Part shown: positions 1-64,000 of the stretch, one piece after another
Layout of the letters: each line of letters begins with the position of its first letter
How positions within the stretch are numbered: position 1 is the stretch's first letter
Origin: a phage
Length of the DNA: 64,000 nt
Assembly (NCBI GenBank): GCA_033648345.1
Contig: GCA_033648345.1_4121.1
Strand: one strand, 5' to 3'
Notes under the pieces: model-generated
What the model was told of the DNA's origin: nothing
Databases searched by the model: none
Seen by the model: only the letters and a program-made list of their open reading frames with translations
Translations under genes and position numbers: made by a program

Positions 1-48
1 CTTGGATTTTACATTGGGTTTACACAACGAATTCTACAACAATATGAG

Positions 49-687
49 ATGAAACAGCCAGAGGTTTGGGTAGAAACTGATTCGAATGAGACGAATGTTT
101 TTTATCTGTACTCTTATTATGCGGAAATTGTTAGTTCAATGACGCTAGAAGGGTATCTATTCGTCAAAACATCTGATATTGAAAAAATATACATAGAACC
201 TGTATCTTTGGATATGGTTGCCCAGCTTCCAACAGTTCAATATTTGGATGCAAATGAGTTGACATATTCGGTGTTTGAGTACCTTAACCGAGACGATTTA
301 ACTCAAGAAATTGAGAATATGGTTTCAAAATATACCACAACTCTTATATCTAATGGTTCACTTAGAATAGAACTGATTTACGACGATACTAGTACTAATG
401 CAGTACGAGGAACTCGAATTGGAAAAGTTACTATACGTGTTGTCCACAATGATGTAGTACTTGGTTATATTTCGAAACGTGGTCATGACTTGTGTTTGAT
501 TAACACATATGTTATTGAACGAAAAGAATGGAACGATTTAATGCAAAAAATCGTAGACGGAAGTGGAATTCGTGATATAATGTGTAATGAGGTAGTGACA
601 ATGAATCCTGACATTGACTGTGATGTATATTTCCCAGTTCCTGGATTTACTCTACGTAATTTTGGTACATTAAAGGGTACAAAATGA
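49..687 (+). CDS. hypothetical protein (212 aa)
   Basis: long ORF in track; first gene of co-oriented plus-strand run; no motif recognised. Confidence 0.5.
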   Translation: MKQPEVWVETDSNETNVFYLYSYYAEIVSSMTLEGYLFVKTSDIEKIYIEPVSLDMVAQLPTVQYLDANELTYSVFEYLNRDDLTQEIENMVSKYTTTLISNGSLRIELIYDDTSTNAVRGTRIGKVTIRVVHNDVVLGYISKRGHDLCLINTYVIERKEWNDLMQKIVDGSGIRDIMCNEVVTMNPDIDCDVYFPVPGFTLRNFGTLKGTK

Positions 688-974
688 AAATTTTAGAAGT
701 CTTACTTGAAAAGGATGCATCCGGCACTCTTTATGTTGGTAATGAGTTCAGTCCTGATCCAATTGATATGATGCAGCGTATTCAAACACTGACCCAATCA
801 ATTTCAGTTAAACAACCTTTCCTAAAAGAATTGGAAATTCACTGCGATAAAGATATGGAACAACATGATAATGTTATTTCTGATATCAAAAGTCTATTGA
901 CAAAGAATGGATATGTGGAGTATAATCCTTCTATCGTAATCGTTATCCCTGACTTTATGAAAGGAACATTGTAA
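684..974 (+). CDS. hypothetical protein
   Basis: ORF in track; ATGA start/stop overlap with upstream gene. Confidence 0.5.
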   Translation: MKILEVLLEKDASGTLYVGNEFSPDPIDMMQRIQTLTQSISVKQPFLKELEIHCDKDMEQHDNVISDIKSLLTKNGYVEYNPSIVIVIPDFMKGTL

Positions 975-1243
975 TGACTAAAGAAGAAATGAAATCTCGC
1001 CTAAGCGAACTTAAGAAAGAACGAAAACTAGTCCGTTTGGACTGGGACATTCTTAACAAAAAAGATGAGCAATCATATGCTAACTGGAGTTCCGATAAAG
1101 TTCGCAATGACCGTTCCAAAGAAGACGCTAAACAGTTTATGGCATTGACCAAACGTTTATCTTCACTGAATAGTGAAATTACAGGTCTTCAAAAGGAAAT
1201 TATTTCAATTCTTCAAGTGGAGATCAACTCACTGTATGAATAA
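974..1243 (+). CDS. hypothetical protein, charged/coiled-coil-like
   Basis: ORF in track; start overlaps previous stop. Confidence 0.45.
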   Translation: MTKEEMKSRLSELKKERKLVRLDWDILNKKDEQSYANWSSDKVRNDRSKEDAKQFMALTKRLSSLNSEITGLQKEIISILQVEINSLYE

Positions 1244-1532
1244 ACATGAAGTGATTCATTTTGATGGTAAGATTTATGTACCAAACAATGATAGTACTGA
1301 ATCTTATTATCTAATCAATGCAATTATGTCAGAAACACAAACATGTTGCCGTCAGCGTCCAGGTGAGTATGAGTTCAGTCAGACCATTGGTTATTATCGT
1401 TATACTGAACTTGATAAATTTACAATCGATTCTAAAAAAGTTATTGACGTTCTCACGAAGAACGGATATAATGAATCCGAATCAAACGAAACAGAGTTAC
1501 CAGTTGTGAAATTTGTTCTAAAAAATAATTAA
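1236..1532 (+). CDS. hypothetical protein
   Basis: track ORF 1173-1532 trimmed to in-frame ATG at 1236 overlapping upstream stop. Confidence 0.4.
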   Translation: MNKHEVIHFDGKIYVPNNDSTESYYLINAIMSETQTCCRQRPGEYEFSQTIGYYRYTELDKFTIDSKKVIDVLTKNGYNESESNETELPVVKFVLKNN

Positions 1533-61998: not shown

Positions 61999-62061
61999 AA
62001 TTCCCTCCTTTATTCATTATACTATATTTAATCAAAAAGAAAAGCCAGTACTCATTTAATT
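61999..62061 (-). promoter_or_regulatory. array cassette (half hairpin)
   Basis: tataat and aggagg conserved. Confidence 0.5.
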
Positions 62062-63207
62062 TTAACGAGGTATAACTATTTTTTTGAATAATCCAGTATT
62101 TCCTGCATTTTCTTCTTCATATGGAATTGTACCCATACCAGCAGTTCTGCCACCATTCCCTGAACCATACAGTTCTCCATTCTTAATCATGAATGTTATC
62201 ATATAACCATGTGTCATTTTATCATATGGAACTGGTTCAGTTATATTATTACATGCTCGCCATGTACTAATAACACTAGAGTTCGTTATACCATCACCTG
62301 ATGCGTTTCCTCGACCAGCGAAATACCATATCCCACCTGCTCTAACGTGTGCTTCATAATTAGAACCACCTATGTAATCAATCGCAGTACTAGGAATACT
62401 AGAAGCTGGTATCTTTGTGATTGTTCTAAGACTGTTAATAGTGCCATTAGTGCCATCACCCAACTGTCCATATATTTGTGAACCGAATACATATAGCCCA
62501 TCACTCTTTAATACGTAATTAGCACTATATGCATTTTCTGAATTTATCTGTAATACTCCAGTAGTAACAGTAGTCAATGTGGTAGTTGTACCAGTCGAAC
62601 CAATACTAGATTTTTTCCCACTGTACTTTAATGTTCCATCATTGTATAATACAAATGAAGCATTATCAGCGGTTACACCAATATCTTTAACATCAACTTC
62701 TGGTGTCAATGTCAGTACTGATACTCTTTGGTCAACAGCCCCAGTAAAAACTTCACCGTTGTTATTGTAACCCATCTTATATAATTTATTATCTATTGTT
62801 AATAATAATGTAACGCCGTTTCCTATAACTATTTTACTATATGTGTCATTCACATCATCAAAAATACCAAGTATTTCTGTCCATACACGATAAGTAGTAT
62901 TAACACCACGATAGATTTGAGCACCAGTACTCCACCATGTGCCATCATTTTTACGTACTAATATTCCGTGTGTATCACCAGTAGTCCAAAATTCCTTTAC
63001 ATCAGTTAAACATAAAACCCACTCTTCAACTATAGTAGGAGAACTACTACCAGTACCTAATTGATAGTAAAAATTATGCCCTCTGCCATATAATCTTCCG
63101 TCTTCTAATAAAATAAACACATTATTCTGTAAAACTTTTACCATCTTTATACCAACTGGCACAGGTGCTTCATTCCCACAATCGAACATTCTAACAAAAG
63201 GTAACAT
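62062..63207 (-). CDS. RCC1-like repeat protein, array member 12
   Basis: start at internal MLPFVRMFDCGN (63207); YGRGHNFYYQLGTGSS / FGSQIYGQLGDGTNGT. Confidence 0.75.
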   Translation of the reverse strand: MLPFVRMFDCGNEAPVPVGIKMVKVLQNNVFILLEDGRLYGRGHNFYYQLGTGSSSPTIVEEWVLCLTDVKEFWTTGDTHGILVRKNDGTWWSTGAQIYRGVNTTYRVWTEILGIFDDVNDTYSKIVIGNGVTLLLTIDNKLYKMGYNNNGEVFTGAVDQRVSVLTLTPEVDVKDIGVTADNASFVLYNDGTLKYSGKKSSIGSTGTTTTLTTVTTGVLQINSENAYSANYVLKSDGLYVFGSQIYGQLGDGTNGTINSLRTITKIPASSIPSTAIDYIGGSNYEAHVRAGGIWYFAGRGNASGDGITNSSVISTWRACNNITEPVPYDKMTHGYMITFMIKNGELYGSGNGGRTAGMGTIPYEEENAGNTGLFKKIVIPR

Positions 63208-63277
63208 ATTCCCTCCTTTATTCATTATACTATATTTAATCAAAAATAAAAGCCAGTACAGAGTACTGGCATAGTAT
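63208..63277 (-). promoter_or_regulatory. array cassette
   Basis: gccagtacagagtactggc hairpin plus tataat and aggagg. Confidence 0.6.
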
Positions 63278-64000
63278 TCAAAAAGGTAAATCAATTTGCT
63301 TAGTAATAATAGTATCTAACGGTATTGAACACAATGAGAAATTCTTTCCACCCGTATTTTTAGGATTATATCCATTCATCCATACATTATTACCTTCGTA
63401 AAATGTATTCCAGTATAAAGACCCACTATATCGTGTATTCGAATTGAACGATGTAAAATTGAATTCTTGAAATGCTGTAAAATATGGAAGGGAACTTGAA
63501 CTACTTCCCGTAAATGGGGTATGCCCAGTTGCTATTAGTTTGTTTGTATCTGCATTAATTAAAAATACAACACTAGTCGAATAGTCCAACGAATCAGGAT
63601 GATATATATTACTCATATCACCTATAGTAAAACCAACATCAAAAACTTTAATATGTGCACCACTACCAGCAAAAGTAGTTCCAGTTGCATATATTTTATT
63701 ATCAGATGTTATCATTACAAAACCAACACCAGAAACAAAACAGCATTTTATATCATAAGATATATCATCAAACAACGGAACAAATGTGGTTGCATCACCC
63801 GATGTTGCTTTAACTTGAAAGCTGTTATTTGAACCTGAACCATATACAGTTCCATCGTTTTTAATCTTAAACACTGTATCACCAAGGTAACCGCCAAATA
63901 TATTATCCACATTAGTGTCAAGTACAGTCCACGCTGAAACATAATTTTTATGTCCTAAACCTAATGCACCACTTCGATTCCATCCTCTTCCATAAAGTGT
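63278..64000 (-). CDS. RCC1-like repeat protein, array member 13 (5' end beyond window)
   Basis: reading frame stays open upstream of the track start to the window edge (...YGRGWNRSGALGLG...). Confidence 0.6.
   Translation of the reverse strand, partial: TLYGRGWNRSGALGLGHKNYVSAWTVLDTNVDNIFGGYLGDTVFKIKNDGTVYGSGSNNSFQVKATSGDATTFVPLFDDISYDIKCCFVSGVGFVMITSDNKIYATGTTFAGSGAHIKVFDVGFTIGDMSNIYHPDSLDYSTSVVFLINADTNKLIATGHTPFTGSSSSSLPYFTAFQEFNFTSFNSNTRYSGSLYWNTFYEGNNVWMNGYNPKNTGGKNFSLCSIPLDTIITKQIDLPF

Follow-up and report, generated by a model that had tools for sequence, protein, structure and literature searches.

Iterated words in genomes and the case of AGTACT

Short words that are iterated throughout a genome, such as Chi, the uptake sequences, HIP1 and KOPS, have each revealed a machine that handles DNA. 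Chi (GCTGGTGG) and the uptake sequences DUS and USS are enriched several-fold across whole genomes, coding DNA included, and they let a protein machine tell its own DNA from other DNA. HIP1 (GCGATCGC), the iterated word of cyanobacteria, is a short palindrome that is enriched genome-wide, within genes and in all reading frames; it is chromosomal and tied to cognate orphan methyltransferases, and its function is unknown. Here we describe a viral word of this kind, the palindrome AGTACT, in a stretch of phage DNA of 64,000 bases (contig GCA_033648345.1_4121.1, positions 1 to 64,000, in the following called the window). A literature search returned no report of such an iterated word in a phage lineage, nor of AGTACT in these phages.

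The comparison with the known systems is instructive in both directions. Like HIP1, AGTACT is a short palindrome that is many-fold enriched genome-wide and independently of the frame within genes, and its one-base variants gather at the outer positions, which is where Elhai reportedly found HIP1 variants to be enriched in 2015. AGTACT differs from HIP1 in being carried by a phage lineage and in being AT-rich, and published nanopore sequencing of close relatives detected no modification at it (PMC11780129). With Chi, DUS and USS it shares the enrichment in own DNA, being about 45-fold denser in the phage than in a host sample; these words are asymmetric, Chi follows the direction of replication, and RecBCD and ComP are the established readers, whereas AGTACT is palindromic and viral. 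The operators of dimeric repressors resemble it in their palindromic consensus, their graded flanks and in copies that overlap the -35 and -10 elements of early promoters, but such operators number few to tens and lie in regulatory DNA, whereas there are about 1,000 AGTACT sites, about 85% of them intragenic.

The window is 99% identical to a part of Escherichia phage fEgEco12 (PP777464.1, about 284–347 kb) and is assigned by its sequence to an E. coli jumbo phage of the 121Q/PBECO4 group (~350–385 kb), genus Asteriusvirus. The gene calls of fEgEco12 were transferred to the window and gaps were filled with long open reading frames (ORFs), which gave 134 genes that cover 91% of it. Most of these genes are small, lie on the + strand and have no assigned function; two tRNA genes and an RpoD-like sigma factor are also present.

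The excess of AGTACT is a property of the nucleic acid

An exact count gave 175 AGTACT in the 64,000 bases (2.73 per kb), where 21.8 copies are expected from a zero-order and 19.8 from a first-order Markov model. In 100 dinucleotide-preserving shuffles of the window, 20.3±4.5 copies were obtained with a maximum of 32, and AGTACT is the top outlier among the 6-mers of the window. As to location, 148 sites lie in genes, 25 are intergenic and two fall on gene boundaries. The genic sites are distributed over the three frames as 72/26/50, and this has to be compared with synonymous-codon shuffling of each gene (1000 runs), which yielded only 42.2±5.7 sites (maximum 60, z=18.7) with a frame split of 24/6/12. 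Permutation of the codon order left 26.2±5.0 genic sites. Intergenic DNA (5.7 kb) holds its 25 copies where 2.0 are expected, a density of 4.4 per kb. Because the codon-aware shuffles are exceeded, and because all frames as well as the intergenic DNA are enriched, the excess belongs to the nucleic acid and not to codons or peptides. Its strength is such that even the proteins are distorted: Ser-Thr dipeptides occur 144 times instead of the expected 96, half of them spelled by AGT-ACT (72 vs 21 expected), and Val-Leu dipeptides 164 times instead of 115, while the reversed control ACT-AGT shows no enrichment (10 vs 16 expected).

An earlier note, made from the letters of the window alone, had suspected the over-representation from sampled stretches and had named counts within the codon-shuffled expectation as the outcome that would overturn it. 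The exact count bears the suspicion out, the genic sites lie far above the shuffled genes, and the split between coding and intergenic DNA that the note had called for places the excess in both, with the intergenic DNA being denser.

The two tRNA genes of the window, tRNA-Ser(GCU) and tRNA-Thr(UGU) at 9338-9427 and 11777-11850 (+ strand), decode AGY and ACN codons, and these are the codons that spell the motif in frame (AGT-ACT or AGT-ACA). AGT is the commonest serine codon of the window (468 of 1388).

Shape, variants and spacing of the motif

The consensus of the sites is a graded palindrome, tTCAGTACTGAa, and extended palindromes are enriched more steeply than the core (CAGTACTG 38 vs 0.96 expected, TCAGTACTGA 9 vs 0.09, TTCAGTACTGAA 3 vs 0.009). 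The flanks carry information at -1 (C) and +6 (G) only, faintly so for one or two further bases, and about none outside ±3 bases, so that the information content tapers over about 10–12 bp. When the genic sites are oriented by the coding strand, C is found at -1 in 62 and G at +6 in 69 of the 148, which means that the flanks are symmetric. Symmetric flanks together with a palindrome gradient out to 12 bp are what an operator of a dimeric protein would be expected to look like. The unit does not reach well past the core, as it would in a dispersed repeat of the REP or MITE type.

Among the NGTACN palindromes of the window, AGTACT (175) is followed by TGTACA (48), and GGTACC and CGTACG are both absent (0). 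One-base variants at the outer positions (AGTACA, TGTACT, GGTACT and similar) reach 1.7–2.5 times the expectation, those at inner positions 0.4–1.8 times, mostly about 1. Half-sites are balanced (106 vs 91), and the window thus lacks the kind of strand orientation, linked to the direction of replication or translocation, that is expected of words such as Chi and KOPS. Inside genes, no positional bias of the sites was found. Spacing is Poisson-like to slightly even, with a coefficient of variation (CV) of 0.79–0.92 in seven of eight segments examined; taken singly, the segments from RaK2, the terminal repeat and the replication region are significantly even.

Conservation and distribution among phages

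To assess selection, the window was aligned to the homologous region of 121Q (85% identity over the aligned columns). Among the 126 window sites that could be aligned, 92 are still AGTACT in 121Q, compared with 47 expected from the identities at the codon positions; as a local control, 4,140 same-phase hexamers 9–60 bases away are retained at 50% (p=2e-7). Divergence per base is 7.1% in the sites and 13.8% in the controls, and the dip is limited to the six bases of the word. Turnover is balanced, with 34 sites found only in the window and 32 only in 121Q, and it follows no single mutational path. The alignment indicates that AGTACT is under purifying selection.

The trait is not restricted to the window. 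In 264.5 kb of fEgEco12 (71% of the genome), 741 AGTACT were counted, at densities of 6.6 per kb in the 21-kb terminal repeat, about 3 per kb in accessory early regions and about 2 per kb in replication and structural regions; the density drops where protein constraint is greatest. A 9–12-fold excess over expectation was found in RaK2 (114 vs 9.1), Munch (42 vs 4.7), EJP2 (71 vs 6.1), the Serratia phage BF (62 vs 5.1) and the Xanthomonas phage XbC2 (65 vs 5.5). There is no excess in the outgroups PA5oct (0 vs 6.1), XacN1 (0 vs 4.1), Atu_ph07 (1 vs 1.9), T4 (2 vs 3.4), Lak-B5 (2 vs 4.1) and Vibrio phage 2.275.O (2 vs 7.3). The trait thus marks the enterobacterial RaK2-like lineage whatever the host, and since it follows the lineage and not the host, this argues for a phage-encoded cause. 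E. coli K-12 has 3 AGTACT in 50 kb (0.06 per kb, compared with 2.7–2.8 per kb in the phage, about 45-fold), so that, on this one host sample, the word is far denser in own than in other DNA, as a self-marking word should be.

The highest density seen is at the non-coding left end of fEgEco12 (1-1,700), where 16 AGTACT occur in 1.7 kb, mostly as ttcAGTACTgaa.

AGTACT in a genome that avoids palindromes

The window is short of palindromes, with GCGC occurring 0 times where 32 are expected, GGCC 22 times instead of 50 and GATC 98 times instead of 185. Of the 64 palindromic hexamers, 25 are absent compared with an expected 3.7, including GGTACC, CGTACG, CAGCTG, CCATGG, CTGCAG and GGATCC. At an expectation of 2–8 copies, 15 of 20 palindromic hexamers are missing, as opposed to 118 of 1,283 non-palindromic ones. 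GTAC is the sole 4-mer palindrome in excess (2.1-fold). AGTACT therefore runs counter to a strong restriction-avoidance regime and must pay for the restriction risk that it creates; as palindromes are otherwise purged, it must bring a benefit that offsets this risk. This benefit must be substantial, because a very strong signal, conserved in at least six genus-level groups with different hosts, opposes the genome's own palindrome avoidance. A target of a ScaI-type restriction-modification system would be avoided or would show cognate methylation; AGTACT does not fit this description, being enriched 9-fold in the window.

AGTACT in promoters, terminators and repeats

Some of the sites lie at fixed places in regulatory elements. 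Seven to eight sigma70-type promoters have the design TTGAC(T/A)-N10-AGTACT-G-TATAAT, in which the motif abuts the -10 element, and two of them carry an extra AGTACT 20 bp upstream that overlaps the first T of the -35 element. Of 95 promoter-like matches scanned, 17 and 12 have AGTACT at the fixed spots beside -35 and -10, respectively, all in one class of promoters, yet 148 of the 175 sites of the window are intragenic. The fixed copies are conserved from one genus to another: AGTACT also abuts the -10 element of early promoters in 121Q and RaK2, and the paired-copy design recurs in the terminal repeat of fEgEco12. The promoters of the window are as follows.

7736..7775, + strand: promoter TTGACT-N10-AGTACT-G-TATAAT, motif abutting -10
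8157..8196, + strand: second copy of the TTGACT-N10-AGTACT-G-TATAAT promoter
8530..8575, + strand: promoter with two AGTACT 20 bp apart (8530, 8550), one overlapping the first T of -35 and one preceding -10
9298..9343, + strand: promoter with two AGTACT 20 bp apart (9298, 9318), directly upstream of tRNA-Ser
26496..26535, + strand: promoter TTGACA-N10-AGTACT-G-TATAAT
30458..30497, + strand: promoter TTGACA-N10-AGTACT-G-TATAAT
41699..41738, + strand: promoter TTGACA-N10-AGTACT-G-TATAAT

In addition, six terminator hairpins have the arrangement CCAGTAC-loop-GTACTGG followed by a U-run, with free energies (dG) of −12 to −16 kcal/mol, and a 16-mer that the earlier note had pointed out, GTATTCAGTACTGAAT, is present at 11202 and 11322. 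Several of the hairpins belong to an array of RCC1-like genes that is described at the end.

2915..2945, + strand: terminator-like hairpin ACCCAGTCTAGTACTGGGT followed by a T-run, AGTACT in loop and stem
11204..11337, no strand: 14-bp perfect palindrome ATTCAGTACTGAAT (within the 16-mer), two copies at 11204 and 11324
47841..47875, no strand: hairpin with 12-bp stem, CCAGTACTATTATAGTACTGG, between convergent genes (dG -15.6 kcal/mol, z -5.1)
49730..49760, - strand: intrinsic terminator GCCAGTAC-loop-GTACTGGC followed by a U-run, after an RCC1-like array gene
50937..50967, - strand: intrinsic terminator of the GCCAGTAC-loop-GTACTGGC design
56053..56083, - strand: intrinsic terminator of the GCCAGTAC-loop-GTACTGGC design
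59586..59621, - strand: inverted repeat CCAGTAC-N-GTACTGG between array genes
63253..63283, - strand: intrinsic terminator of the GCCAGTAC-loop-GTACTGGC design

All contexts in which the earlier note had seen the word, namely promoter spacers, terminator stems of the array cassette, the 16-mer and coding regions, are thus present, but the promoter, terminator and 14–16-mer contexts together hold only about 20 of the 175 sites. The earlier note had also thought of recombination-prone palindromes; a palindrome of 6 bp cannot extrude by itself, and those inverted repeats that are longer are terminators of the ordinary kind.

A second class of promoters has its -35 element TTGACT within a GGGTTGACTTCGGTCAGCCC hairpin with a UUCG-type loop, followed by a T-rich spacer and TATAAT (window positions 32235, 35827, 36484, 39245, 43608, 44153 and 44492, + strand). 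These promoters look like combined terminator-promoter units, and they are the reason for the repeated 8-mers CTTCGGTC and GACTTCGG.

An island of AGTACA outside the window

A related word takes the place of AGTACT in one region of fEgEco12. Between 29.5 and 37.2 kb, AGTACA occurs 40 times where 3.6 copies are expected, and there is neither AGTACT nor GTACT (0 each). All copies lie on the coding strand (40 vs 0), in all three frames as well as in intergenic DNA, and the genic ones exceed synonymous shuffling (35 vs 14.0±2.8). The same island is found in 121Q (NC_025447.1 161,949-169,248) and in CMSTMSU, each with 41 AGTACA and 0 GTACT, and its AGTACA density is kept in 121Q though the two phages 121Q and fEgEco12 have no more than 17 of the 40 positions in common. 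Over about 25–60 kb of fEgEco12, AGTACA is mildly favoured on the + strand. The window itself contains no island of this type. A sequencing artefact can be dismissed as the cause, as the independently sequenced 121Q and CMSTMSU agree; paralogy or known domains were rejected as well, since none of the island genes matched a Pfam family above the curated threshold and the paralogy among them is only partial. The island, though not AGTACT in general, is reminiscent of the EcoP15I sites of T7, an asymmetric word that also occurs in a single orientation. The T7 sites, however, are not enriched, and their bias is read as an escape from Type III restriction, whereas AGTACA is 11-fold enriched in 7.5 kb.

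In the neighbourhood of the island in fEgEco12 (21,000-26,200), about 28 overlapping tiny genes of ~70 amino acids each form an array with 0 AGTACT and no enrichment of GTAC, which has a repeated word of its own, GCTGTACT. This array may have expanded, or may have been acquired, only recently.

Possible readings of the AGTACT word

The excess of AGTACT resides in the DNA, is conserved, lineage-wide, independent of the host and symmetric, and is embedded in promoters. We infer that a protein reads the word, which serves as a genome-wide mark. The explanation that we favour, and to which we would give an even chance of being correct, is selection of AGTACT as the site that a symmetric (dimeric) protein encoded by this phage lineage recognizes. 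With about one site per 350 bp and roughly 1,000 per genome, compared with about one per 17 kb in the host sample, the word would mark phage DNA along its whole length and would offer a site for binding or processing. The extra copies at fixed spots next to -35 and -10 in early promoters could enable the bound protein to control early transcription, and further copies sit in terminator stems. Operators of host proteins such as SlmA or those of the LexA/TrpR type were rejected: they do not agree with the flanks seen here (c-AGTACT-g, in which G is depleted at -1), and the hosts vary across the lineage.

Which protein might recognize AGTACT? One gene of the window can be put forward as a candidate.

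18475..19059, + strand: PD-(D/E)XK (restriction-endonuclease-fold) protein of 194 amino acids, candidate reader by phyletic co-occurrence alone

This protein is 60–70% identical across genera, the neighbouring sigma factor only 33–39%. It carries the signature D-x8-E-x-K together with an invariant cluster of histidines, and its fold is nearest to I-Ssp6803I and the Hjc resolvases. It belongs to phrog_16175, a family of unknown function, and none of the databases consulted holds a functional name for it. In the phage collection it occurs in this lineage only, plus in a Vibrio phage at 33% identity, and among 5.8 billion proteins it forms just 51 clusters.

Several observations weigh against a dimeric protein as the reader of AGTACT, or against this candidate. 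About 85% of the sites are intragenic and the word is found genome-wide, which is unlike an ordinary operator regulon. Of the "regulator binding site" that the earlier note had proposed, the protein-binding site is the part that is best supported, by the symmetry, the tapering flanks, the purifying selection on six bases, the restriction to a lineage without host dependence and the fixed promoter positions, and an ordinary operator regulon is the part that fits less well. The spacing of the sites in the window (CV 0.92, P=0.16) does not deviate significantly from random. A Pfam scan of 132 window proteins left 120 without a domain and matched 12, none of them a recognizable sequence-specific DNA binder. 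The AGTACA island shows that AGTAC is also read in an oriented manner, possibly at the level of single strands or of RNA, which a symmetric dimer would not predict, and no model offered here accounts for the island. The PD-(D/E)XK protein is a candidate by co-occurrence only, and many lineage genes including the sigma factor share this pattern. Moreover, Vibrio phage 2.275.O bears the 33%-identical homologue without any AGTACT excess; as there is no iterated palindrome in this phage, it was also rejected as a positive control for a link between nuclease and motif.

A more specialized, and in our view unlikely, possibility is a lineage-specific enzyme that processes DNA in a sequence-dependent way and has AGTACT as its cognate word; the Hjc-like protein at 18475–19059 would be the best candidate. 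The activity of such an enzyme would be limited to DNA in a special state, for instance branched intermediates of recombination or replication, or to a brief phase of the infection; the 350-kb genome would have been shaped by co-evolution so that both strands present a site at intervals of a few hundred bases, and the AGTACA island would be a region in which one strand only is processed. Sequence-dependent junction resolvases, such as RuvC with its (A/T)TT|(G/C) target, would explain frequent and even sites as well as uncut duplex virion DNA, and the Hjc-like protein is conserved in exactly the AGTACT-rich lineage. However, the targets of such resolvases are degenerate tetramers that need no enrichment, so that the likeness is purely hypothetical here, and these phages already own a resolvase of the T4 endo VII type (PMC7824862). 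If this is correct, a virus would possess a "genome grammar" comparable to Chi or to resolvase targets, and would keep it despite strong restriction pressure. The earlier note had also considered a modification or nuclease target. A nuclease target is possible only for an enzyme that spares ordinary duplex virion DNA; in a nanopore study that included a close relative of XbC2, nicks were seen only in an unrelated phage (PMC11780129).

Modification, the other half of that proposal, is disfavoured, and with it an origin of the HIP1 type is weakened. In such a scenario, an orphan methyltransferase would mark GTAC or AGTACT, methylation-dependent short-patch repair would turn near-matches into the palindrome and protect the copies already there, and the excess would be a by-product. 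The restriction of enriched variants to the outer positions (about 2-fold, inner about 1-fold) and the two DNA methyltransferases encoded by these phages would agree with this, and biased repair would also mimic conservation. Nevertheless, we regard it as quite unlikely. Comparison of native with amplified DNA by nanopore sequencing revealed modification only at GATC, CCWGG and TGCAT in two jumbo phages of the group, Hallingskeid and the Mimasvirus Kaldavass (PMC11780129), and RaK2, for which two methyltransferases were reported, has CpG methylation according to bisulfite data (PMC3622015). DNA of fEgEco12 is cut as predicted by ten restriction enzymes, a set that does not include ScaI (PMC13070987). 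The only methyltransferases found in the examined 71% of the genome are a C5 enzyme (PF00145) and a Dam-family enzyme (PF05869). The C5 enzyme, which adjoins the window, was rejected as the cause because RaK2 methylation is at CpG and AGTACT contains no CpG; the Dam-family enzyme, which has no relative in the PDB by sequence, was rejected because it is too widespread to track the trait, being present in 2,199 phage records including phages without it. Very-short-patch repair of the Dcm/Vsr type should deplete the neighbour words that derive from T:G mismatches, but AGTATT (53 vs 41.7 expected) and AATACT (33 vs 39.7) are not depleted. These transition neighbours are also not the main partners of lost or gained sites (5 of 34), and no Vsr-like gene was seen among the part of the genes that was scanned. 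Finally, two genome islands without AGTACT and a more-even-than-random spacing would be unexpected from a genome-wide repair bias.

The word might instead be a signal in RNA, with AGUAC(U/A) in transcripts being read by an RNA-binding protein or an endoribonuclease and the palindrome being incidental. This is what the AGTACA island would suggest, given its confinement to the coding strand, its maintenance despite the turnover between fEgEco12 and 121Q, and the mild + strand preference around it. But only one in 64 hexamers is palindromic and the flanks are symmetric to 12 bp, copies are found ahead of start sites, in the spacers of promoters, as well as in the 1.7 kb of non-coding DNA at the genome end, and half-sites that are not palindromic do not favour the coding strand in the + strand gene block of the window (about 70 vs 71), all of which makes an RNA-level origin about as improbable as the repair scenario. 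Selection for how the DNA behaves physically, for instance for a flexible GTAC step that would help compaction in a large capsid, would account for the genome-wide and fairly even distribution and for the excess of the GTAC core. It is nonetheless very improbable, because the specificity is sharp (AGTACT compared with TGTACA, GGTACC and CGTACG), all six bases are conserved, neither the strand specificity of the island nor the fixed promoter positions are predicted, and jumbo phages of similar size lack the trait. As to a spread of regulatory cassettes (promoters, terminators and the 14–16-mer) combined with codon or dipeptide preference, it is true that promoter and terminator families hold AGTACT and that AGT, ACT and GTA are favoured codons. 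The cassettes, however, cover few of the sites and the flanks are random beyond about ±3 bases, while codon-aware shuffles (42±6) stay far below the 148 genic sites and the excess is present in all frames; the codon shuffles and the random flanks refute this as a sufficient cause, and we consider it hardly conceivable.

Most genes of the lineage have no known function, and AGTACT therefore offers an experimental handle on a new sequence-specific protein and its process. ScaI-type restriction systems should be highly effective against these phages, which are therapeutic candidates, and the density of AGTACT is a simple marker for members of the lineage in metagenomes.

Other features of the window

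The RCC1-like (beta-propeller) array consists of about 13 paralogous genes on the - strand (window 47,869-63,910), which are named "chromosome condensation regulator" in relatives. A GTAC-built terminator follows most of these genes, and the order and content of the array differ from those in fEgEco12 and 121Q. ORFs without a counterpart in fEgEco12 are located at about 4,900-5,580, 6,726-7,130, 9,649-11,320, 13,791-14,195, 36,513-37,055 and 44,215-44,472 of the window. These segments look like mobile insertions that set the phage apart from its closest sequenced relative; homing-type endonucleases of the HNH/NUMOD4 and PDDEXK_5 types are also encoded in the window. TAAATA and TATTTA are depleted about 3-fold (23 vs 65 and 16 vs 56 expected), which would fit a genome that keeps T4-like late-promoter words (ATAAATA) to its true late promoters.

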